A stretch of 35,717 nt of DNA, taken from IMG/VR virus record IMGVR_UViG_3300006851_000004, positions 1 to 35,717 of that record, one strand, 5' to 3'. The notes beneath the pieces were generated by a model that ran no database searches, was not told the DNA's origin, and worked only from the letters and a program-made list of their open reading frames with translations. This document shows, piece by piece, positions 11,036 to 35,058 of this stretch. Positions within the stretch are counted from its first letter, which is position 1; the number at the start of each line of letters is the position of its first letter. A program made the translations under genes and the position numbers. The DNA comes from a virus (Duplodnaviria; Caudoviricetes).

Positions 11036-11101
11036 AAAAAGTTTGTAGAAACAAAGAAAAGTTTTAAATTTGCCTTGTAATCAAAAACAAAATACATTAT
11101 G
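11023..11101 (+). promoter_or_regulatory. Early promoter repeat, copy 2
   Basis: TTTG(11042-11045)-N19-TAAATTTG(11065-11072)...CATTATG. Confidence 0.88.
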
Positions 11102-12331
11102 ACAATCTACAAAAATTTAGCCGCAGAGTACAAAAAGGCAAACGAAGCCAAAAAAAGCAGAAGCGTACACAGCAGATTAAAAAAAGAATTCGGTATCGAC
11201 ATCAACGCTAGAGCGATTAAGGACTACCTAAGCCTGTCTTGGAATGAAATTGTCAACGGCGAAATAGAGCATTACTTTGCCGATATGTTCAGCCCTGAAG
11301 AAGCCGACCGGGCATCATCCATCATCGCCGAAATTTTAGACGAGAAACAAGATAAAGAGGAGGAAACCGAAACGAAAAACGAAACCCAGAAAAACGAACC
11401 TAAAACCACAGTAGGCAAAGATAAGTTCGAGGCTGGATTCAGCCTTAACCTACCAATCTACGAAATGGTAAAGGAAGCCGTAAACGAACACGCACCCGAA
11501 ATCGCAGAGAAACAAGCGAGCGAGGTGGAGCAATTAATCAAGGAAGCCGCCAAGAGCATATCGCCAAACATCATCAACATCAACAACGCAAAAGTAGGCG
11601 AAGTGAAAGGCAAAACACACAAGGAATTCCAAGAGGCAATGGATATAGTTGTTAGCCAAAAAAAGTTGTTTTTAAAGGGCGAATCGGGAACTGGAAAGAC
11701 ATTCATAGCAGAGCAAATAGCAAACGCGTTAAACCTTAAATTTGACACCATCAGCCTCACCGCAGGAATCAGCGAGGGGTATTTAATCGGGCGAACAAAC
11801 ATACAAGGCGAGTTTATCAGTACTTCATTTATTGATATTTACGAAAACGGAGGTGTGTTTTTATTAGATGAAGTTGACGCGTCAGACGCAAATACGTTGC
11901 TAATATTAAATAAGGCTATAAGCAGCAACTCTATGCCAGTACCGATGCGCACAGAAAACCCAATTGCTAAGCGTCATAAAGATTTTTACATCATTTGTGC
12001 CGCCAACACGTGGGGCAACGGAGTCGGGAGCGATTACACGGGTCGAGAATACCTCGACGAAGCGTTTCTCAACCGATTTTCGGCGGCAAAGTTGGAGTTA
12101 GACTACGACGAAGAGCTAGAAAAGGAATTATTAGAATCTGAACTGGAGCTGTTCGGCAAACTAATAGAATTGCGCAAAAACATTCGAGAAAACAAGCTAG
12201 ATAGGCTAGTTAGCACCCGAACAATGATAGACGCGATGAAGTACAAAAAAACTGGCAAAAGTATCGAACAGGTAATTGACAGGCTGACCGTTGATTACAC
12301 AAACGAAGAGCGAAAAAAAGCGGTCGCCTAA
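11099..12331 (+). CDS. MoxR/CbbQ/CobS-like AAA+ ATPase
   Basis: Walker A GESGTGKT, Walker B FLLDEVD, sensor 'ICAANT', 'LDEAFLNRF'. Confidence 0.9.
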   Translation: MTIYKNLAAEYKKANEAKKSRSVHSRLKKEFGIDINARAIKDYLSLSWNEIVNGEIEHYFADMFSPEEADRASSIIAEILDEKQDKEEETETKNETQKNEPKTTVGKDKFEAGFSLNLPIYEMVKEAVNEHAPEIAEKQASEVEQLIKEAAKSISPNIININNAKVGEVKGKTHKEFQEAMDIVVSQKKLFLKGESGTGKTFIAEQIANALNLKFDTISLTAGISEGYLIGRTNIQGEFISTSFIDIYENGGVFLLDEVDASDANTLLILNKAISSNSMPVPMRTENPIAKRHKDFYIICAANTWGNGVGSDYTGREYLDEAFLNRFSAAKLELDYDEELEKELLESELELFGKLIELRKNIRENKLDRLVSTRTMIDAMKYKKTGKSIEQVIDRLTVDYTNEERKKAVA

Positions 12332-12337
12332 ACTACG

Positions 12338-12362
12338 GAGGGGTTAACGCCCCTCTTTTTTT
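12338..12362 (+). terminator. Rho-independent terminator
   Basis: GAGGGG-ttaacg-CCCCTC followed by T7. Confidence 0.8.
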
Positions 12363-12371
12363 GCCTAAATA

Positions 12372-12429
12372 TTTTGCAGAAACAAATAAAAGTTTTAAAT
12401 TTGCCTTGTAATCAAAAATAAACATTATG
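12372..12429 (+). promoter_or_regulatory. Early promoter repeat, copy 3
   Basis: TTTG..AGAAACAAATAAAAGTTT-TAAATTTG(12396-12403)...CATTATG. Confidence 0.85.
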
Positions 12430-13206
12430 AAATCACGAATCATCAACCACCTAAACACAAAGCATTACATACACGAATTCCGTAACGTGAATGACCTGTA
12501 CAATTCCGCAACGAACACAAAGAGAGGAAAAAAAATAATAAACAAAGCGATAACCGAAAACGACAAATGGGTATTCGGAAAATACGGAATCGACAGCGTT
12601 GATAAAGTCGTAAATGGAGTTAACAGCGACTTTATAGTAAAAAAACAAGGCAGGAAAACAAGCAGAAAACAAAAAGGGCAAAAGCGCCGAAAAAAATACA
12701 GTGACCAAGGCGATGTAGATGTCATGAGGGCGTTATCAGGTTCAATGTCGCCATTCATTAGAAAGACAAAAGTAAAATCAAAATGTCGAAACGTAGAGCT
12801 AATAGTATCGTTAACTATTTCAGCAAAACACAAAACAAAAGACATAGCAGCGTTTTGCAATGAGGTAGCAGACAAAGCCGCATCCTTAATAAGCTCGGGT
12901 AAAATGGTCAAAATAACCCTGTTTTCATATTCAATCAACACCACAAAAGGAAATTCAAACCTGGTAACGCTAGTTAACCTAAAGGGTTACCGTGAAAAAA
13001 TAGACATAAGCAGAATATATTCAATTTGCTACCCAGTCTTGTACCGAGGGTTAATTTTAGAGTCCTACAACATAGTCGACGAAACACTAAGTGCAGGCTA
13101 CGGAATTCCTAGCCAAAGCACCCAAACCAGCAAAGATTTGCTGAACGTGATTGGAATAGATAATTTTGAAATCATAGACTTCAAAGAATGGCTAAGAAAA
13201 AAATAA
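12427..13206 (+). CDS. VWA-like (CobT-like) partner of the AAA+ ATPase, degenerate MIDAS
   Basis: 'GDVDVMRALSG..PF' followed by 'VELIVSLTISA' strand; adjacent to the MoxR-type ATPase; C-terminal 'GYGIP'. Confidence 0.6.
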   Translation: MKSRIINHLNTKHYIHEFRNVNDLYNSATNTKRGKKIINKAITENDKWVFGKYGIDSVDKVVNGVNSDFIVKKQGRKTSRKQKGQKRRKKYSDQGDVDVMRALSGSMSPFIRKTKVKSKCRNVELIVSLTISAKHKTKDIAAFCNEVADKAASLISSGKMVKITLFSYSINTTKGNSNLVTLVNLKGYREKIDISRIYSICYPVLYRGLILESYNIVDETLSAGYGIPSQSTQTSKDLLNVIGIDNFEIIDFKEWLRKK

Positions 13207-25853: not shown

Positions 25854-28640
25854 ATGGCAGAGCAAATAAAACTAGCTGAATTTGAAATGGATATGGACGG
25901 CGTAATTGCCGAAGCCGAAAAATATAAACGCACGCTGGACGAATTGAAGCAAAAGCGAAAGGAGATGAAGAAGTCAGGCGAAACGGCTAGCAAATCTTAT
26001 GTTCAGCTTGAAGCGTCAATTAAGGCGACAAACAAAGAATATAGAGACAGGCTAAAGATAGTTCAAAGCAGCATCGAGAAAGCAGACAAACAAGAAAACA
26101 GAACTAAGAAACTAACAGCTGCATTAGACTTCCAAGGCACGACGATTAAGGAATTGCGCGACAACAACAAGGCGCTTAACAAGATGCGCAACAGCGCAAA
26201 CATCGAGACCGAAGAGGGTCGAAAGGAACTAGCTAAGCTTAACGAAAAACTAGACGAAAACAACGCGAAAATAAAAGAAAACGTTGACGCCTACACTCAA
26301 CAAAAAATAAATATCGGTAATTACACCGAGTCGGTGGTTGACGCATACAAGGAATTACGAAAACAAGAAGCAGAAATACAAGATAACATTAGCGCATTAG
26401 AAGAAGCGCGCACACAGGTTGACAAGAATAGCGACGAATGGACAGCCTATTCACTCGCAATCGACAAAGCTTCAGGGGAGCTTGATAGCGTTCAAAACGA
26501 ACTAGGCGACACGTCCGACCGAATGGACGATACAGGCGGGGCGACAGACTCATTATCGGAAGGAATCGGCAACCTAACAGGTTCGGAAGCGGCAGCAGGT
26601 TCAGCAGCTGTATTAATGGAGAGTGGACTCGCAGGCGCTACGGCAGCGGTAAAGTCGTTCACGAAATCAACATTAGCTTTTATCGCTACACCAGTTGGCG
26701 CGGTGTTAGCAGCACTAGCCGCGGCTTTCTTGTTAATCAAGAACGCAATTAGCAGAAGCGAGGAAAGTACGCACGCGTTGGCTATGGCATTCGCACCGCT
26801 CAAAGGGTTATTCAACGCGTTAATGGGCGCGTTGAAGCCTCTAGGCGACTTGCTTATAGAGGGAATAGCGGGAGCATTAGAGTTAATAACGAAATCATTC
26901 TACGCGTTAATTGAGGCGGCGTCAGCGGCAATGGAGTGGTTAGGATTTGAGGACGCAGCCGAAGCGATGAGAGATTACAGGGCTAGCATAGACGCAGCAG
27001 CTGAATCAGCAAGAGAGTTGGAACGGGCTGAACACAAGCTAACGGTAATGACACGTGAACAGACTATCGCAACGGCAAAAGCAAAGGCGCGACAAGAGGA
27101 ATTGAAAACCATAAGAGACGACGAAAGCCGCAGTATTCAAGAAAGAATAAAAGCGAACAAACAACTAGGTCAGGTTATCGCTATTCAGCAGAAATCCGAG
27201 TTAGAACAAGCTAAATTAGCATTAAGAGTAGCGAAATTAAGAGCAGAACAAGACGGGAAAACTACTGAAAATTTAGACGCTATAACAGAGGCAAAAGTCA
27301 GAATATTTGAAATTAACGAAGATATTTCATCCCGACAAACGGAATTCGTTACCAATCGAGCTACATTGATGAAAGATTACCGCGCAAAACTTAAAGAGCA
27401 AGCGCAGGAAAGAATAGACCAGTTAAACGCGGAGCTAGAGTTAATGAAAGCAAAGCAAGGCTGGCAAGCCAAATCAGCCCAAGAAGAGTTATCACAAGCG
27501 GAAGCTGTAGCGGATGAAAAACTAAGCATACTCAACAAGCAGCTTAAAAATGGATTAATCACGCAAACGGAATACGAAATACAGTCGTTGACCATAAGCA
27601 ATGAGATTGAAAAGAAAAGAGCCGAAACATCAATCGGAATAGCTAAGCGAGCCTTGGATGAACGCGTAAGGATGCTTCAAGAGTCGAAGAACCAAAAGCG
27701 GTATCTTGACGAGCAGGAGTTACAACGGCAGTTAAGCCTTAACGCAAAATTGCTAGCAGCTGAGCAGCAATTTCAGAATAAGCGCTTGCAGCAAGGGTTA
27801 ATAAGCGAACAGCAGTACCAAGACGCTATCGCAGCCAAGCGACGCGAGATTGAAGCAAAAAACAAACAGCTAAAAAAACAAAGAGAAAACAAAGAAAAAC
27901 AAGAGCAGGAAGCGTTAGAGTTAATCGAGTTTCAACAAAGCATCGCGCAAATGAAAGCGCGTAACGCTAGCAAGTTTGAAATCAAAATGGCGCAGGTTCA
28001 AGAGCAATACTCACAAGAACTCGAAGCGCTAAATCAGAAGTTGCACGATGAGGAGATAAGCGAAAAGGTTGCAGCCGAAAAAAGAAAGCAGTTGCACAGG
28101 CAGCAAGCAGCAGCGGAGTTGAAAATTGAACAAGCTAAGAACAACGCGATGTTAGCTTCAACGGAGGGAATGTTATCGGCGGTTGCGAGCTTAGTCGACG
28201 AGAGTAGCGCCGCAGGCAAAGGAATAGCTATTGCAAAGGCGTTAATAAACACTTACCAGGCTATTACGTCAGCGCTTAATACGAAACCTTTCTTGCCTGC
28301 CGGATTAGCAGCAGCAGCGACAGCAGCAGCGACAGGATTCGGAGCTGTTCAAGATATAGTAAGCACGGAAATACCTAGTGCAAGCGGTAAAGGAAGCGCA
28401 GGAGGCGGAAGCCAAGCACAAGGCAACCGAAACATAAGCACATCAATGGGATTCAGCGTAAACGGCAGCCCAGCGGAAACAAGCGCGACGGTGCTAAACC
28501 AACTAGACGCGAATAACCTTATGGGCGATATGCCGCAAAAAGTAGCCGAAGCGGTCAGAGATGGCGCAAAAGACGGCACACAATCGGGTATGGTAGAATT
28601 GAGCGGAAATCAAGAAATAGCAAGACAAAATTCATTTTAA
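25854..28640 (+). CDS. Tail tape measure protein
   Basis: 928 aa, A/E/K/Q-rich coiled coil, 'QQKINIGNY', hydrophobic Ala/Gly segments. Confidence 0.88.
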   Translation: MAEQIKLAEFEMDMDGVIAEAEKYKRTLDELKQKRKEMKKSGETASKSYVQLEASIKATNKEYRDRLKIVQSSIEKADKQENRTKKLTAALDFQGTTIKELRDNNKALNKMRNSANIETEEGRKELAKLNEKLDENNAKIKENVDAYTQQKINIGNYTESVVDAYKELRKQEAEIQDNISALEEARTQVDKNSDEWTAYSLAIDKASGELDSVQNELGDTSDRMDDTGGATDSLSEGIGNLTGSEAAAGSAAVLMESGLAGATAAVKSFTKSTLAFIATPVGAVLAALAAAFLLIKNAISRSEESTHALAMAFAPLKGLFNALMGALKPLGDLLIEGIAGALELITKSFYALIEAASAAMEWLGFEDAAEAMRDYRASIDAAAESARELERAEHKLTVMTREQTIATAKAKARQEELKTIRDDESRSIQERIKANKQLGQVIAIQQKSELEQAKLALRVAKLRAEQDGKTTENLDAITEAKVRIFEINEDISSRQTEFVTNRATLMKDYRAKLKEQAQERIDQLNAELELMKAKQGWQAKSAQEELSQAEAVADEKLSILNKQLKNGLITQTEYEIQSLTISNEIEKKRAETSIGIAKRALDERVRMLQESKNQKRYLDEQELQRQLSLNAKLLAAEQQFQNKRLQQGLISEQQYQDAIAAKRREIEAKNKQLKKQRENKEKQEQEALELIEFQQSIAQMKARNASKFEIKMAQVQEQYSQELEALNQKLHDEEISEKVAAEKRKQLHRQQAAAELKIEQAKNNAMLASTEGMLSAVASLVDESSAAGKGIAIAKALINTYQAITSALNTKPFLPAGLAAAATAAATGFGAVQDIVSTEIPSASGKGSAGGGSQAQGNRNISTSMGFSVNGSPAETSATVLNQLDANNLMGDMPQKVAEAVRDGAKDGTQSGMVELSGNQEIARQNSF

Positions 28641-28641
28641 A

Positions 28642-28932
28642 ATGAGCAGCTTATTCAAAAAAATAAACAGCGTAGCTAAGCACGGAATTAAGCCGATAGA
28701 GAAAGGCAGAAATAATTACCAACTCAATATACCCGAAATTGAACAGCTGGCAGCAGAGAGGCTAAAAACGTGTTTAGAATGCGAAAACTACGCGGACGAA
28801 CCAATTTCGTTTTTGAAAGTGAAAGATAAACGACTTGAAAAATTAAGCGAAAAAATGTGCAATAATTGCGGTTGCGCATTACCTTACTTGCTACGCCAGA
28901 GCGATAAAATTTGTAAAAAGTGGAAGCGATGA
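28642..28932 (+). CDS. Cys-rich putative zinc-binding protein
   Basis: RLKTCLEC...CNNCGC...CKKW. Confidence 0.7.
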   Translation: MSSLFKKINSVAKHGIKPIEKGRNNYQLNIPEIEQLAAERLKTCLECENYADEPISFLKVKDKRLEKLSEKMCNNCGCALPYLLRQSDKICKKWKR

Positions 28933-29159: not shown

Positions 29160-29372
29160 TTACACAGCTTCAAGAGCCGCAACACGAGCCTCTAAATCAG
29201 AAAGTGCCGATTTTGTAGCCAAATCAGTAAGTGCTGTTTTGTCGGCTTTGTTGTTTTGCAAATCAGTAACGTCTGTTTTTACAGCGTCAAGCTGACCTTG
29301 CGTAACGTCGTTTCCGCTTCCTTGTTTCAATTCCTCGACTTCGGGAATAATGTTTTGTGGTGTAACTGCCAT
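29160..29372 (-). CDS. Small coiled-coil protein with fibre-like motif
   Basis: 'KADKTALTDLATKSALSDLEARVAALEA'; ATG at 29372. Confidence 0.65.
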   Translation of the reverse strand: MAVTPQNIIPEVEELKQGSGNDVTQGQLDAVKTDVTDLQNNKADKTALTDLATKSALSDLEARVAALEAV

Positions 29373-29406
29373 AATAAAAAAAATTAAAGGTTTGAACACA
29401 AAGGTA

Positions 29407-29721: not shown

Positions 29722-29748
29722 AGTTTTGATTTTTAAGTTAAAAATTAG

Positions 29749-29820
29749 AGCTCCCGACAGGATTCGAACCTGCATAATCTTGGTTTGCTGCCAAGCACCT
29801 TGCCAATCGGACACGGGAGC
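29749..29820 (-). tRNA. tRNA-Cys(GCA), atypical (A33, no encoded CCA)
   Basis: Acceptor GCTCCCG/CGGGAGC with U73; anticodon arm CTTGG-CAGCAAA-CCAAG; T arm GCAGG-TTCGAAT-CCTGT. Confidence 0.85.
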
Positions 29821-29845
29821 GATAATACTTGCGTCTATCTGCGAG

Positions 29846-30214
29846 TTATCGGCAACTGATTTTACCACCGCACATCTTCATAAACCATCGGAAAGTTTGT
29901 TCTACTTCTTTTTGTGCATCTTCCAAATTATCGAATAAGTGTTTTCCATTTGATGGATATAGGTAACTGATTGTGAATTTCAATTCACCTTTTATATCCA
30001 ATTTTTTTATCCAAGCAATTTCCCAACGGCAAACTTTACCTCTGTAAAATCCAATATTATCAAACTTTCCTGCATACGCAACTCTTGCCCATCTACCCAT
30101 ATCATCATCTTCCATAGTTGATGAATAGCGTGGAAGCCATCGCACATCAGCAGCCGATAACACGGGTTTTGTGCCATTGGCGGTTTCGTTTTTCAATTCA
30201 GCTTTTCTGCTCAT
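29846..30214 (-). CDS. Hypothetical protein (cassette 1)
   Basis: 122 aa; starts within the attC loop and stops on the TTA of the core site. Confidence 0.7.
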   Translation of the reverse strand: MSRKAELKNETANGTKPVLSAADVRWLPRYSSTMEDDDMGRWARVAYAGKFDNIGFYRGKVCRWEIAWIKKLDIKGELKFTISYLYPSNGKHLFDNLEDAQKEVEQTFRWFMKMCGGKISCR

Positions 30215-30281
30215 ATCAATATTTGTTTTTCAATTTAACATTTGTGGTTTAGGTCGCCAACTGACACAAAGCCCGAAACCG
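29846..30281 (+). mobile_element. Integron-like gene cassette 1
   Basis: Begins at G|TTATCGGC (29845-29853), the exact reverse complement of its attC left box GCCGATAAC (30153-30161). Confidence 0.75.
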
Positions 30282-30289
30282 TTATGTGC
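30153..30289 (+). repeat. attC-like site 1 (137 bp)
   Basis: GCCGATAAC-ACGGGTTTTGTGCCATTGGCG ... CGCCAACTGACACAAAGCCCG-AAACC-GTTATGTGC imperfect inverted repeat with a bulged base. Confidence 0.8.
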
Positions 30290-30294
30290 CATTG

Positions 30295-30474
30295 CTACGT
30301 TGACCGCTTCGATTGAATTTTAGTGGAAGTTTTTTGTTCTTTTTCCCAACGCTCAATCAAAAATCCAACAAAACCTGAAATACTTTCTTTACCAAATAAA
30401 TTTTTTGATAAAGAACGAGCCTTCTCCTGTTGTTCAGGAGTAAGGCTTATTGTTACTTTTTTTGTGTTGCTCAT
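30295..30474 (-). CDS. Ribbon-helix-helix-like small protein
   Basis: 'KKVTISLTPEQQEKARSLSK..GKESISGFVGFLIERW'; ATGA-type overlap with the upstream gene. Confidence 0.6.
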   Translation of the reverse strand: MSNTKKVTISLTPEQQEKARSLSKNLFGKESISGFVGFLIERWEKEQKTSTKIQSKRST

Positions 30475-30710
30475 ACAAGTTCCCATTTGTGTCCGTTACT
30501 TGTCTCAATCACATTCTTTAAAGTCAATTTCACAAAATCAACTATTGATGGATCAAGTGTTTCAACTATGATTTTTAAACCATCAAATCTACACCATTGC
30601 AAGGAACGGTTGTTTTGTTCGTTAAATCTGCTTTTTACAACAAACTCAAAAAACTGATTTTCCTCTTTGTGCTTTATACCTGTGCTTTGGTATTCAAATA
30701 CTTGTGTCAT
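30471..30710 (-). CDS. Hypothetical protein (cassette 2)
   Basis: 79 aa, downstream of a consensus promoter. Confidence 0.65.
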   Translation of the reverse strand: MTQVFEYQSTGIKHKEENQFFEFVVKSRFNEQNNRSLQWCRFDGLKIIVETLDPSIVDFVKLTLKNVIETSNGHKWELV

Positions 30711-30752
30711 AATTTTATTTTTTACATCGTAGCTTCATTGCTAACAACACTT

Positions 30753-30783
30753 CAAAGATAAGTATTTATTTTGTATTTACAAA
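30753..30783 (-). promoter_or_regulatory. Bacteroidetes housekeeping-type promoter inside cassette 2
   Basis: Minus strand reads TTTG-N19-TATCTTTG. Confidence 0.75.
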
Positions 30784-30871
30784 CTATTTATCAAAAATAT
30801 TTTTCCCCACCCACAAAAAAGAACAAAAAACCTTGCTGCGATTGAAGTATCTGCTAAACAAACCGCAACGA

Positions 30872-31005
30872 GAGCATAACAGCACCTATGCAAAATGGCT
30901 CAATTCATTTCCAGTTGACAGTTTAACGATGCGACAAATGCGGTTTTCAAAAGAACTTTTGTATTTAAAAACCGCCACTTCGCATAGCCGCATCACGTTA
31001 TGTGC
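30872..31005 (+). repeat. attC-like site 2 (134 bp)
   Basis: GAGCATAAC-AGCACCTATGCAAAATGGC ... GCCACTTCGCATAGCCGC-ATCAC-GTTATGTGC. Confidence 0.78.
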
Positions 31006-32570
31006 AAGTGCTACGTTAGTCGTTAAATTGAAACATTGTAGCATTTAAGCCGTTTTAATAATTTTTGCCTTTGCGCTTTTTGCGTATGGTAGATAATTGA
31101 AAAAATGTGCGATAACATCAACCGTCCACCCATTTCCAAGCATTCTGTAACGTTGCGTGTCGGAGACTTCATTTGTGTAATTATCCGGGACCGTTTGAAG
31201 CCGTTCGCACTCTAAAGGTGTTAATCGTCTTAATCTATTTCCACAAATGAATTTTTGAACGTGATTAGTTAGGTGCGTGTCGGTTTTTTGGTTATCATAA
31301 ATTATAGTTCCTAGTTCTGATATTCCGGTCTTTTTTTTGTCGCCCCTATGCGGTCTAATTCCCCTGTCATTAATTGAAATACCGCCCACTCTTTGCAAAA
31401 CCAAATTATCCTTTGAAACGCTCGTCAAACAATTGGTTTTCCCGTCTTTTTTTGGTTCTAACCTTTGCTCGGTCGGGCTTCCATTTTGGCGGTCGCTCGG
31501 ATTGTCGGGGTTTCTACCTCGCATTGCAACGCAAATAATATCCATATCCGAATGAAGCCCACCAGAATTTCCACCGGCCGTAAAACAATTGCTTTTATCT
31601 TGGTTTTTTGCCACTTGCAATCTTGTATCAACTTTGATAAAATTATCCGAAATATCACAACTTGCCATACTTGAAGTTAATGTGGTCGCCTTTCCAGTTT
31701 CTTTGCGAATATTCACTTTTCCGTTGTTAAAATTTACTGCTCTGTTTTCAAAGTAATTAAGCATTTTATCACTCAAATAATACTTTTCCGGGACATCATT
31801 TTCTAAAATATCCTTTAGCAAAATCCCTTTGTCTTTTGGTTGTGGAACACCACATTTCAAATCATTGAACAAACCGAACGTTTTTAAATTTATATTGGTC
31901 CAGTATAATCTAACTCTATTTTGAGCAGAAACCAAAGCGGAATTTATGGTAACGGGTCCTATTTTTAGAAATTGGCTAATAACCGTTTCATATTCCTTTT
32001 TCATTTTCACGTTTTCCAAGAAAAAATAAGTCGGGTTCAATTCGTCTTTCAACCGGATAAACTCAAAGAACAATTTACTTCTTTCATCATCAAATGCTAA
32101 TTGCTTTCCTGCAAAAGAAAATCCCTGGCACGGACTACCACCAATCAACAAATCTATCTTAGGCAAATCCTTTGCGTTTATTTCGGTAACATCGCCAAGC
32201 TGTATCGTATCGGGAAAATTACTTTGAGTTACTTTTATGGCGTGTTTGTCAATTTCGGATGCAAAGTATTGGTTTACTTTTATTCCTGCCTTTTTTAAGG
32301 CTAATTGACCGCAGCTCATTCCGTCAAATAAGGAAAGCACATTGATACCTTCGCTTCCTTCGTCAGCGATTTTGCCACCGCTTAAAAAATTATTAAAACT
32401 CGTTTCGTTTTCCATAGTAAATTTTAGTTTTTAAATCCGCACCAGCACATAACAAGGGCTAAGCGTAATCGGGCAAAAGTGCCACGATTGAAACATTTCG
32501 GTAAGCTGAACTATTTGTTTTCATAACACGTATCGAGGTAAAATCCCCGCCTACGCTTAGACCCGAAACG
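30998..32570 (+). mobile_element. Integron-like gene cassette 3 (methyltransferase)
   Basis: Begins at G|TTATGTGC (30997-31005), the exact reverse complement of GCACATAAC (32445-32453). Confidence 0.75.
31045..32415 (-). CDS. C5-cytosine DNA methyltransferase (orphan)
   Basis: Motifs SLFDGMSCG, GGSPCQGFS, LENV, QNRVRLYW, RRLTPLECERLQ, MLGNGW. Confidence 0.95.
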   Translation of the reverse strand: MENETSFNNFLSGGKIADEGSEGINVLSLFDGMSCGQLALKKAGIKVNQYFASEIDKHAIKVTQSNFPDTIQLGDVTEINAKDLPKIDLLIGGSPCQGFSFAGKQLAFDDERSKLFFEFIRLKDELNPTYFFLENVKMKKEYETVISQFLKIGPVTINSALVSAQNRVRLYWTNINLKTFGLFNDLKCGVPQPKDKGILLKDILENDVPEKYYLSDKMLNYFENRAVNFNNGKVNIRKETGKATTLTSSMASCDISDNFIKVDTRLQVAKNQDKSNCFTAGGNSGGLHSDMDIICVAMRGRNPDNPSDRQNGSPTEQRLEPKKDGKTNCLTSVSKDNLVLQRVGGISINDRGIRPHRGDKKKTGISELGTIIYDNQKTDTHLTNHVQKFICGNRLRRLTPLECERLQTVPDNYTNEVSDTQRYRMLGNGWTVDVIAHFFNYLPYAKSAKAKIIKTA

Positions 32571-32578
32571 TTATGCTC
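32445..32578 (+). repeat. attC-like site 3 (134 bp)
   Basis: GCACATAAC-AAGGGCTAAGCGTAATCGGG ... CCCGCCTACGCTTAGACCC-GAAAC-GTTATGCTC with a bulged base. Confidence 0.8.
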
Positions 32579-32608
32579 AATTGCTACGTGACCGCTTCGA
32601 TTTAACAT

Positions 32609-32809
32609 TTACTCCATTCTTCTACCCCATTCCTCGTCCGATACTTTCTCGTACCCCATTTTTTTTAGATACTTATCAATCGTTTTCTTTTTAGCCATTC
32701 CTTTTCGGAATGACTGCAAGAAGTTACTAGCCGTTGATTGTTCGATTCCGTAGTGGACGTACCACTTTAGACGACTTGTTTCTTTTTCTATTATTTCTTT
32801 TGGGGCCAT
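32609..32809 (-). CDS. Small HTH-like protein
   Basis: 'GIEQSTASNFLQSFRKG..KKKTIDKYLKKMGY'; first gene after the leftward promoter. Confidence 0.65.
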   Translation of the reverse strand: MAPKEIIEKETSRLKWYVHYGIEQSTASNFLQSFRKGMAKKKTIDKYLKKMGYEKVSDEEWGRRME

Positions 32810-32829
32810 AGGTAGTTCTTTTACAGGAG

Positions 32830-32859
32830 CAAATATACATAAATATATTAATACAGCAA
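32830..32859 (-). promoter_or_regulatory. Leftward promoter facing the accessory island
   Basis: Minus strand reads TTG-N19-TATATTTG. Confidence 0.7.
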
Positions 32860-32919
32860 TAAAAAGTTATCATTTCTTTGAAAAACAAACAATTGCTATT
32901 CGAACTAACTTTGAAAAGT

Positions 32920-33969
32920 ATGAAAGGAGTGATAAATATTTTCGGAGATATTGGCGACGATGTGACGTTGATTGACGTTGTTCAGCAAGTCGAAAAACAA
33001 AAAGACGCAACATCATTCACAGTTAATCTAAACTCGAACGGCGGTTACGTATCGGAGGGTTTCGCTATCTATGATTATTTGAGCAGCTTAGAACAGAGCA
33101 TTACGATGAATGGACAAGGCGTTGTGGCGTCAATCGCTTCAATTATATTTTTAGCTGGTGACAAGCGACGAGTTCAGCGCGGCACGGTATTTATGATTCA
33201 CTTGCCCGCAGTCAAGCTAGACGACTACAACACATCAGACGATTTCGATGAAGCGTCTAAGCAGCTGAAAAAGATTGAACGCGACGTGATGAAGTTTTAC
33301 GAAAAACACACATCGTTAAGGGGTGCTACATTGCGCGAGCTTTTGAAACAGGAAACATATTTGAACGCCGAGCAGCTCTATGATTTCGGCTTCACGACCG
33401 CAAAACAAGAGTTACGAGCGGTCGCAAAACTTAATATTAATCAAAACAGAGATGAGATGACAGAGCAGGAAAAACTAGAAGCCAAAAAAGCAAAAGGTAT
33501 TCTGGAAAAAATAAAGGCGTTTTTCGCAGACGAGGGGGCTGTAATGAAGACGTTAAAAACAGCCAACGAAAAAGAGTTAGAGTTTTCACAAGTTGACGAC
33601 GAGGCGAAAGTAAAAGTAGGCGATACGGCAACGGTTGACGGCTCACCCGCTGACGGCGAATACGTACTAGCCGACGGACGGAAATTAGTTTTCGAGTTAG
33701 GCAAATTGGTTGAAATCATTGAAGCAGGAAGCGAAGATGACGGAAATCAAGATGAAGAGATTCAAGCCTTGAAAGAGGAAAACGAAAAACTCAAAAAACA
33801 AGTCGAAAACAAGACTGACGAAGCAGCTGACGCGGTTGCAAAACTAACGGAAGCAAAAAACACTTTGAAAGATATCGAAAAGATTCAATCAAAAGTGGTT
33901 GCAAAAAAACAAACTAAAGAAAAAAAGAAAGGCGTGTTAGACGGCGCTTTCGATAACCTACGAAAATAG
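32920..33969 (+). CDS. ClpP-type prohead protease with C-terminal scaffold-like coiled coil
   Basis: 'LNSNGGYV..G', 'VASIASIIFLAG', 'FMIHLP', 'ETYLNAEQ..GF'; ATG 32920 preceded by TAACTTTG (32906-32913). Confidence 0.9.
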   Translation: MKGVINIFGDIGDDVTLIDVVQQVEKQKDATSFTVNLNSNGGYVSEGFAIYDYLSSLEQSITMNGQGVVASIASIIFLAGDKRRVQRGTVFMIHLPAVKLDDYNTSDDFDEASKQLKKIERDVMKFYEKHTSLRGATLRELLKQETYLNAEQLYDFGFTTAKQELRAVAKLNINQNRDEMTEQEKLEAKKAKGILEKIKAFFADEGAVMKTLKTANEKELEFSQVDDEAKVKVGDTATVDGSPADGEYVLADGRKLVFELGKLVEIIEAGSEDDGNQDEEIQALKEENEKLKKQVENKTDEAADAVAKLTEAKNTLKDIEKIQSKVVAKKQTKEKKKGVLDGAFDNLRK

Positions 33970-33975
33970 AAAATT

Positions 33976-35058
33976 ATGGCACTAGACCAAACATCATTAG
34001 CGGCTATCCTCGACGCACTTAACGGCTTAGAGGAGTCAGAAAAAATGAAGCTATCGGAAGCTATCTTTTTAGAGGCTTTTAAGGCGGAAAACATCAAGAA
34101 CACACATACCACCATAGGCGGTATTCACAGCGGGAACAAAGTACCTATTTTGGGCGACGAGGACGGCTTTGACGGCTTCCCGTTTGTCGATGGTTGCGCA
34201 CTTCCAGATTGCTCAATCGCAAACGATTGGAGCACAATGAAATGGGAGCTAGGCGAAATCGGTTGCGAGCTAACGTTGTGCTTGAAAGACTTGTTACCGA
34301 AATTTCAAGCATTCTACAACGTGTATCGCAAAATGAACGAGGGCGACATCAACAGCGCATTTGTTCAATTTATCGCCGAGCGTTTTCAGACCAAACATTT
34401 GAAAGCTGAGTTACGCGTAGCTTACTTCGCTGACGTTGACGCTACAGATACAAAGCTCAACGGGTACGACGGCTTTGTTTCCCAAATGGACGCGATTTCA
34501 ACAGCCAACCCCGATTTGAGGGTTGATATTACTGAAAACGCACAGACTACATTAGCAGGTCAGACTATCGCTGACGGGCAAGCTGTGTACGACTATATGA
34601 AAGCGCTGTACAACCAAACCGCTGGCAAGGCGTGGTTCAATCCTGAAAAAATGGTGTGGCGAATGAACCGCTCACTAGTTAACAAGCTAGTGGCGTTCTT
34701 GAATACTAAGAGCGATTTAAGCGGCATTTCTTGTGGTTGTATTGACCCCGAGAAAGCAGCAGGCGCACGAATTTTCAGCTATGACAACCTGACGTTGTTT
34801 GGCATTCCAGTAGAGCCAAAACCTTTCGAGCAAGCGATGAAATCAAGCGCATTCTACTGGGACGGCAGCAAATTCACTAAGTACAAGAACATTATCATCT
34901 TGGCGCGACGCGACGCGATGATTTTGGGGTACGAAACAGAGGAAGCACTTTCGCAATTCAACATCGGTTACGATAAGCGTAAACGCGAGGTTTGGATGCA
35001 AGGTAGTTCACTATTCGGAGCGGCTGTGCCAGTGCCTTATTTCGGAATCGCAATTTAG
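33976..35058 (+). CDS. Major capsid protein (putative)
   Basis: 360 aa directly after the protease/scaffold gene; assigned mainly by size and position. Confidence 0.8.
   Translation: MALDQTSLAAILDALNGLEESEKMKLSEAIFLEAFKAENIKNTHTTIGGIHSGNKVPILGDEDGFDGFPFVDGCALPDCSIANDWSTMKWELGEIGCELTLCLKDLLPKFQAFYNVYRKMNEGDINSAFVQFIAERFQTKHLKAELRVAYFADVDATDTKLNGYDGFVSQMDAISTANPDLRVDITENAQTTLAGQTIADGQAVYDYMKALYNQTAGKAWFNPEKMVWRMNRSLVNKLVAFLNTKSDLSGISCGCIDPEKAAGARIFSYDNLTLFGIPVEPKPFEQAMKSSAFYWDGSKFTKYKNIIILARRDAMILGYETEEALSQFNIGYDKRKREVWMQGSSLFGAAVPVPYFGIAI

Follow-up and report, generated by a model that had tools for sequence, protein, structure and literature searches.

A cassette platform without a recombinase gene in a phage genome, integron-like in its working and probably rearranged in trans by a Bacteroidota-type tyrosine recombinase

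The stretch of DNA analysed here (the window) comprises the 35,717 nt of IMG/VR virus record IMGVR_UViG_3300006851_000004 and represents a complete circular phage genome, with a 123-nt terminal repeat and a record rated 100% complete. It carries an array composed of a docking site at 29845 followed by three cassettes, each ending in a hairpin site of the same polarity, and the content of this array differs between close relatives exactly at G/TT (the slash marks the crossover point). The genome has no tyrosine recombinase gene, and the site family is associated elsewhere with a recombinase family of the Bacteroidota. It is considered probable that this is an integron-like platform rearranged in trans by a Bacteroidota-type tyrosine recombinase that is without the insertion specific to the integron integrase IntI. 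An earlier note on this DNA had proposed mobile integron-like cassettes shuffled by an IntI-like enzyme of the host; the present analysis adds an attI-like platform at 29845, cassette genes running antisense to the sites, a 4-nt bulge in the sites and, beside such arrays in Bacteroidota, a recombinase that is not a classical IntI.

Hairpin sites and docking site

The sites of the array are listed below, with the scores of the covariance model.

29826..29847, plus strand: attI-like docking site, ending in the G/TT crossover with its G at 29845
30153..30289 (137 nt), minus strand (the folded strand): attC-type site 1, 90 bits, E 4e-20
30872..31005 (134 nt), minus strand: attC-type site 2, 60.5 bits, E 7.7e-13
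32445..32578 (134 nt), minus strand: attC-type site 3, 62.3 bits, E 2.8e-13

The earlier note had described three palindromes of near-equal length, each with an ATAAC left box, a GTTAT right box and paired arms, and these were confirmed at the same coordinates by a covariance model constructed from 37 bacterial sites. The loci of these sites had been found via an 18-mer of the site 1 arm or via the recombinase described below, and sites holding the 18-mer were excluded. Within the window the model detected sites 1–3 and nothing else, all on the minus strand, with site 1 scoring 19 bits on the plus strand against 90 on the minus strand. A fixed-geometry arm scorer (4-nt bulge beside the right box), its geometry having been picked after the sites were seen, gave 14.4, 13.7 and 12.7 for sites 1, 2 and 3, a score above 11.0 being reached by none of 50 dinucleotide shuffles of the window; the covariance model is the stronger test. 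A looser free-gap arm scorer did not separate the sites from the shuffles (shuffle maximum 15.4).

The folding of the bottom strand, for which the earlier note had asked, was borne out at all three sites, with energies of −16.0, −20.9 and −20.8 kcal/mol on the minus strand against −13.4, −19.3 and −19.8 kcal/mol on the plus strand. A G-T pair was present next to the right (R) box in 35 of the 37 training sites, at a position that lies outside the detector's scoring, and the bottom strand is therefore the likely folded strand. It should be noted that covariation counts are partly circular, since the sites were selected for pairing. The opposite polarity, with the minus strand taken as top strand, was tried and rejected, having given poor scores, and the ends of homology fit the plus polarity.

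With an AAC...GTT core and arms that pair on the bottom strand, sites 1–3 are attC-type in a broad sense, and as at least two such sites of the same polarity with no integrase they form a cluster of attC sites lacking an integrase (CALIN). In a canonical attC site the two spacers differ by one base and an extrahelical base lies on the L'' arm, as is visible in the aadA7 sequence. Here the spacer asymmetry takes the form of a 4-nt bulge adjoining the R box: an offset of 1 nt scored −8.1, −0.9 and −9.1 where the 4-nt offset gave the values above, although this is a rough test as the scorer expects pairing across the spacer. The bulged base that had been described in the arms of sites 1 and 3 is clear in site 1 and depends on the register in site 3. 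Short minus-strand open reading frames (ORFs) without a family run through site 2 (30886–31044, 52 aa) and site 3 (32459–32608, 49 aa).

A docking matrix was derived from the 14 bases preceding GTT downstream of 40 Bacteroidota recombinase genes; in leave-one-out scoring 9 of the 40 training anchors fell below zero and may be wrong. With this matrix 29845 ranked first of the 677 GTTR sites in the genome, the three attC-type GTTs ranking 562–643. Motifs resembling the docking site also head many other viral arrays, and 29845 is therefore regarded as a platform and not as a chance insertion. Sporadic secondary insertion at 29845 was likewise considered and rejected on the matrix rank in favour of a docking site. 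The site is attI-like by its position and by the recombinase-adjacent matrix, not by likeness to attI1, and alternative cassettes lie directly after it in two sequencing runs described below (X2 and X3). In some other phages, two or three near-identical attI-like sites each head an array of their own, namely in L323 (1255, 4233 and 6677), L326 (1998 and 8407) and L281 (266 and 3287, reversed).

Cassettes and their genes

29846..30281 (436 nt), plus strand: cassette 1 including site 1, delimited by homologue ends, with a ~99% copy in run X7
29846..30214, minus strand: 122-aa gene of cassette 1, its ATG in the loop of site 1 and its stop being the TTA of the 29845 core
30282..30997 (716 nt), plus strand: cassette 2 including site 2, with two minus-strand genes and a promoter-like block
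30295–30474, minus strand: conserved gene of ~59 aa, cassette 2
30471–30710, minus strand: variable 79-aa gene, cassette 2
30720–30830: conserved promoter-like block, cassette 2
30998..32570 (1,573 nt), plus strand: cassette 3 including site 3, with 9/9 end complementarity and a contig of its own in run X2
31045..32415, minus strand: C5-cytosine DNA methyltransferase, 456 aa (PF00145, E 5e-52; phrog_116)
32571..32809, plus strand: orphan cassette start that has no site to its right, followed by a minus-strand gene of 66 aa (phrog_26076); fixed right end of the array

The earlier note had observed that the left box of a site matches the start of its own cassette, and recomputation gave the same values: GCCGATAAC against 29845 (9/9), GCACATAAC against 30997 (9/9) and, for cassette 2, a match of 7/9. 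In a wider set of 100 cassettes, the left box was closer to the start of its own cassette than to the right box of the same site in 84, the reverse being true in 4.

The protein of cassette 1 has relatives in eight viral loci, which fall into three sequence types with homologues 73–88% identical. In seven of the eight (two sequence types) the DNA homology extends from the GTT of 29845 to the GTTA of 30281 with unrelated flanks. For cassette 2, in four of the 13 homologous loci the homology sets in at a GTT, the DNA upstream being unrelated. These four begin with GTTATGCTC, the complement of the left box of site 2, from which the start in the window differs by two changes, while the orphan start at 32570 has the matching form. 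Cassette 1 and the start of cassette 2 are accordingly found as G/TT-bounded units in different contexts; for cassette 3 the basis of such a unit is limited to the complementarity of its own ends and to contig ends. The orphan start (about 32566–32610) matches at 92–93% the starts in L278–L280 and L287, which belong to the cassette 2 family, and its region is conserved in X3.

The middle gene of cassette 2 differs in L278–L280, and the cassette may represent a self-regulated promoter cassette with a variable passenger. Its 59-aa product resembles a ribbon-helix-helix protein by eye with no family match, and an inverted repeat TTTGTA-TT-TACAAA lies at 30770 in its conserved block. No family was found for any of the small cassette genes; the 122-aa protein of cassette 1 had no Pfam or PHROG family, and its Atlas matches were all below 0.9. 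No restriction enzyme was found beside the methyltransferase gene. A scan for sigma-70 promoters and terminators remained at chance level. The Bacteroidota motif TAnnTTTG occurs 54 times in the genome, and promoter calls are for this reason treated as leads only.

Exchange of cassettes in relatives

Eight sequencing runs contain part of the stretch, of which six were examined; from two of these (X4 and X5) no more than short pieces were obtained. L270, identical at 99.98%, represents the same phage and was not counted as independent, and X1 is possibly the source run. In X3, which comes from another study (2025), a 10.9-kb contig matches 29237–29847 (14 differences) and 32569–34500 (60 differences) at ~97% identity, and the 2,721 nt of the window between the G/TT at 29845 and the G/TT at 32570 are replaced by 2,801 other letters. 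After the docking GTT this contig has a different cassette-like start. The invariance of gene content that the earlier note had named as counter-evidence is thus absent from this relative, and mobile units bounded at G/TT, as had been claimed, are seen both here and in the homology that ends at GTTs in other phages.

In X2 a single foreign start is joined to both 29848 and 30284, giving alternative junctions among near-identical copies; this start resembles one that heads a cassette in L281. Cassette 3 forms a contig of its own in this run (1,572 nt, 31004–32575) with a depth of 7 against 22 on the right flank, depth being no copy number. A site-3-like arm (21/22) precedes 30995, and this junction could stem from cassette 3 in circular form, from a different order of the array or from a further cassette that has a sister arm. 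In X7 a ~99% copy of cassette 1 was found between foreign flanks, the match beginning at the G of the 29845 GTT.

Exchange by homology or micro-homology, using the similar arms and starts and no site-specific enzyme, was weighed against the proposed site-specific rearrangement. The phage does encode Erf, an exonuclease and RusA, cassette starts resemble one another, and the start and inner gene of cassette 2 look recombined. However, the X3 contig shares just the GTT at 29847 before diverging and rejoins the window at 32569, the X7 match begins at the G of GTT, and the end complementarity of most cassettes needs a circular intermediate or an equivalent. This explanation is considered improbable.

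A second possibility is that the platform is a fossil, the array dating from a time when an ancestor had a recombinase gene of its own next to the docking site, with the variants of today predating the loss of that gene. Phages with a recombinase beside the array do exist, the gene being split or partial in three of five; the last cassette start of the window is without a site, and the ends of cassette 2 are imperfect. Against this, the match of X3 to the window reaches the docking site, where no recombinase lies, and yet the content differs at ~97% flank identity, X2 shows its alternative junctions among near-identical copies, and the copy in X7 is ~99% identical. A fossil platform is regarded as unlikely, if somewhat less so than exchange by homology.

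Among distant relatives (29–58% capsid identity) no sites were found. In L263, L264 and L267 the homologue of the gene at 28929 is followed within about 100–700 nt by the Clp gene, the array being missing with no empty docking site.

Site family and its recombinase in Bacteroidota

In the portion of the genome collection that was scanned, the 18-mer of the site 1 arm had 121 matches (about 430 estimated), and these were mostly of Bacteroidota among the 80 of 121 listed. Arrays of this site family are of the same polarity, with 141 of 181 sites being 120–129 nt long and clustering at ~126 nt, and the covariance model matched in 56 of 101 sampled genomes of Bacteroidota.

A family of tyrosine recombinases adjoins the Bacteroidota arrays. 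It has 46 distinct members; among the 35 with at least 1.2 kb of downstream sequence, 15 have a same-strand site downstream, and an opposite-strand site was found upstream in 2/37. Sites occurred in 23 of 28 recombinase-positive genomes against 32 of 72 recombinase-negative genomes (p 7e-4), a comparison that ignores kinship and assumes that both searches drew G048–G147. This adjacency suggests that the family is the cognate enzyme of the sites. Array-associated members lack ~40 residues of IntI (L209) in all nine aligned, corresponding to the IntI-specific insertion, and all five that were scored fell under the TIGR02249 cut-off. The predicted fold of a phage member is closest to XerA (5hxy) and IntI (2a3v). 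Two layouts are apparent in Bacteroidota: mostly long recombinases co-oriented with the array, and mostly short ones (~280–310 aa) that are divergent, as in phages L333 and L334. These layouts were seen among L213, L162, G090, G102, G114 and G053.

Among viruses the recombinase is encoded by five of 41 array-bearing records and by one of 13 near-complete array-bearing phage records. In L333–L336 it lies head to tail after the cassette genes, at the place where the phage of the window has tRNA-Cys. The absence of a tyrosine recombinase from the window, claimed earlier, was upheld by Pfam and PHROG scans of its 54 ORFs and by a six-frame PF00589 search of the genome (0/1, with 14/14 controls positive).

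The earlier note had named an integron integrase as the enzyme, and a classical host IntI recognising sites 1–3 was weighed as a third alternative. The GTT/AAC core is common to both systems, the best profile matches of the partner family include TIGR02249 (below cut-off), and, in the part of Qi et al. 2023 (PMC9892861) that was available, IntI1 was active on five of six phage attC sites, P12002L_attC2 among them. However, a protein above the IntI cut-off occurred in just 1 of 47 genomes reached through the 18-mer, the recombinase adjacent to the arrays has no IntI insertion, and the site geometry differs. The sole site that IntI1 did not integrate, according to the same part of that paper, was P12002L_attC1, which shows a weak fit to the present site family (16.7 bits, E 0.047). 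A classical IntI is regarded as improbable, on a level with exchange by homology.

Inverted cassette genes

The gene of a usual integron cassette is read from the GTT towards its attC site. This orientation is not found in the window, where all cassette genes lie on the minus strand, antisense to the sites. Among viral cassettes 70 of 77 were antisense and 2 sense (25 of 41 loci), whereas among bacterial cassettes 47 of 51 were sense and 2 antisense (24 of 80 loci), both sets having been found with the same 18-mer. In a set of cassettes found through their proteins, 21 of 46 antisense genes begin inside the site. The opposite orientation makes the phage cassettes look like a separate pool, not captured host cassettes.

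Proposed mechanism

It is suspected that cassettes leave as circles and re-enter at G/TT, which would explain why the left box matches the start of its own cassette, with the folded bottom strand as the likely substrate. The enzyme would be supplied in trans, either by the Bacteroidota host or by a co-infecting phage. The lineage may have acquired its platform from an L333/L334-type phage and now has no recombinase gene beside it. Expression of the array would proceed along the minus strand towards the docking site and the tRNA, starting at promoter-like motifs that lie at 32837 and within cassette 2, and the cassette with the methylase is likely to shield the phage from restriction by the host.

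Several points weigh against this reading. The evidence from X2, X3 and X7 consists of assembled contigs, not reads; what is known of the X3 replacement covers its start, and any sites further inside it are putative; the recombinase status of X2 and X3 is known from matched contigs and not from full phage genomes; and X2 and the probable source run have year and habitat in common, perhaps within one campaign. A relative with an empty site at 29845, as the earlier note had suggested, was looked for and none was found among the relatives examined. L008 has the cassette 1 gene with the right end and without the left GTT end, and the 7/9 end of cassette 2 together with its replaced inner gene shows that exchange also takes other routes. 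Of the 78 loci homologous to the methylase, just 9 carry a site where the gene begins, and in 5 the gene is flanked by sites; most such methylases are therefore not cassettes. Finally, 20 of the 35 recombinases have no downstream site in their short flank, and 32 of the 72 genomes without a strong recombinase match still carry sites.

Relation to known systems

The array works like an integron but is not one by the tests of IntI and canonical geometry. A platform site followed by hairpin sites of the same polarity, the G/TT crossover, a cassette end complementary to the cassette start, the folding of the bottom strand and a tyrosine recombinase of the IntI/Xer neighbourhood are common to both. 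It differs in that this genome has no recombinase, integrons having an integrase beside the array, that the partner family is without the IntI insertion (I2), that the sites have a 4-nt bulge adjoining the R box and cluster at ~126 nt, and that phage cassette genes are antisense, often starting in the hairpin loop.

Qi et al. 2023 (PMC9892861) report 17 phage CALINs. In the available part of that work these are, as here, attC clusters without an integrase in virulent phages, with methylase cargo and action in trans proposed; they are treated as ordinary attC sites and assayed with IntI1, and that part contains no description of a docking site, a cognate enzyme, inverted genes or natural swaps among relatives. 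Polaribacter phage P12002L gave weak matches to the covariance model with minus-strand genes adjoining, and looks like a carrier of this site family. Integrative mobile elements exploiting Xer (IMEX) such as CTXphi are alike in that, in the part of PMC4792948 available, the phage uses an unencoded recombinase (XerCD) without an I2 domain on a folded strand. They differ in that the whole CTXphi genome integrates at dif through a stem without extrahelical bases, whereas here single genes move within the phage genome and the hairpins are bulged.

In the accessible portions of PMC4792948 and PMC7790495 the I2 helix is tied to hairpin recombination, and the latter holds that the two occur only together in IntI. 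In the available part of one survey complete integrons are all but absent from Bacteroidetes, with one reported (PMC9024848), and co-oriented integrases are mentioned in that of PMC4889954; no paper describing the Bacteroidota integron-like system was found in the open-access literature. On balance we lean towards the view, held less firmly than the reading of the window itself, that a second integron system extends across the phylum Bacteroidota and its phages, and that the recombinase of this system, devoid of an I2 helix, acts on bulged single-stranded hairpins. The phages would keep their own inverted cassette pool, with the hairpin often supplying the gene start, and recombinase-less phages, this one included, would retain just the docking site and borrow an enzyme to reshuffle their counter-defence genes. 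Should the enzyme act on these hairpins, the origin of integron integrases from an Xer-like ancestor would become directly testable, and a precise route would be given for phage mosaicism and for the exchange of methylase genes. What the window contributes is that cassettes have been swapped in nature, exactly at the crossover points, in close relatives of an enzyme-less phage.

Genome and setting of the array

Pfam and PHROG scans identified genes for portal, terminase, tape measure, Clp protease, endolysin, Erf, exonuclease, SSB and RusA. The tape-measure region and the Clp gene flank the minus-strand block to which the array belongs. The host is probably a member of the Bacteroidota, since the site family occurs there. 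A BLAST search against 50,697 GenBank phage records gave 214 matches, and among the 40 listed all lie within the methylase gene; the Clp protease query retrieved no viral relatives.

29748..29820, minus strand: tRNA-Cys(GCA), directly adjoining the docking site, at the place of the recombinase gene in recombinase-bearing phages

An Rfam scan of the window gave this tRNA plus one chance match and nothing else. The distance from the tRNA to the docking-site GTT is 25 nt, and the base preceding its anticodon is A, where U is usual. In the early region (11099–13206) an AAA ATPase adjoins a DUF7192 gene. Near the end of the tape-measure gene (28189–28428), ~225–240 nt are swapped for other letters of near-equal length in runs X2 and X3. 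Repeat units of ~21 nt occur at 29193–29279 within a small minus-strand gene (29160–29399), and the contigs of X2 and X3 break there.

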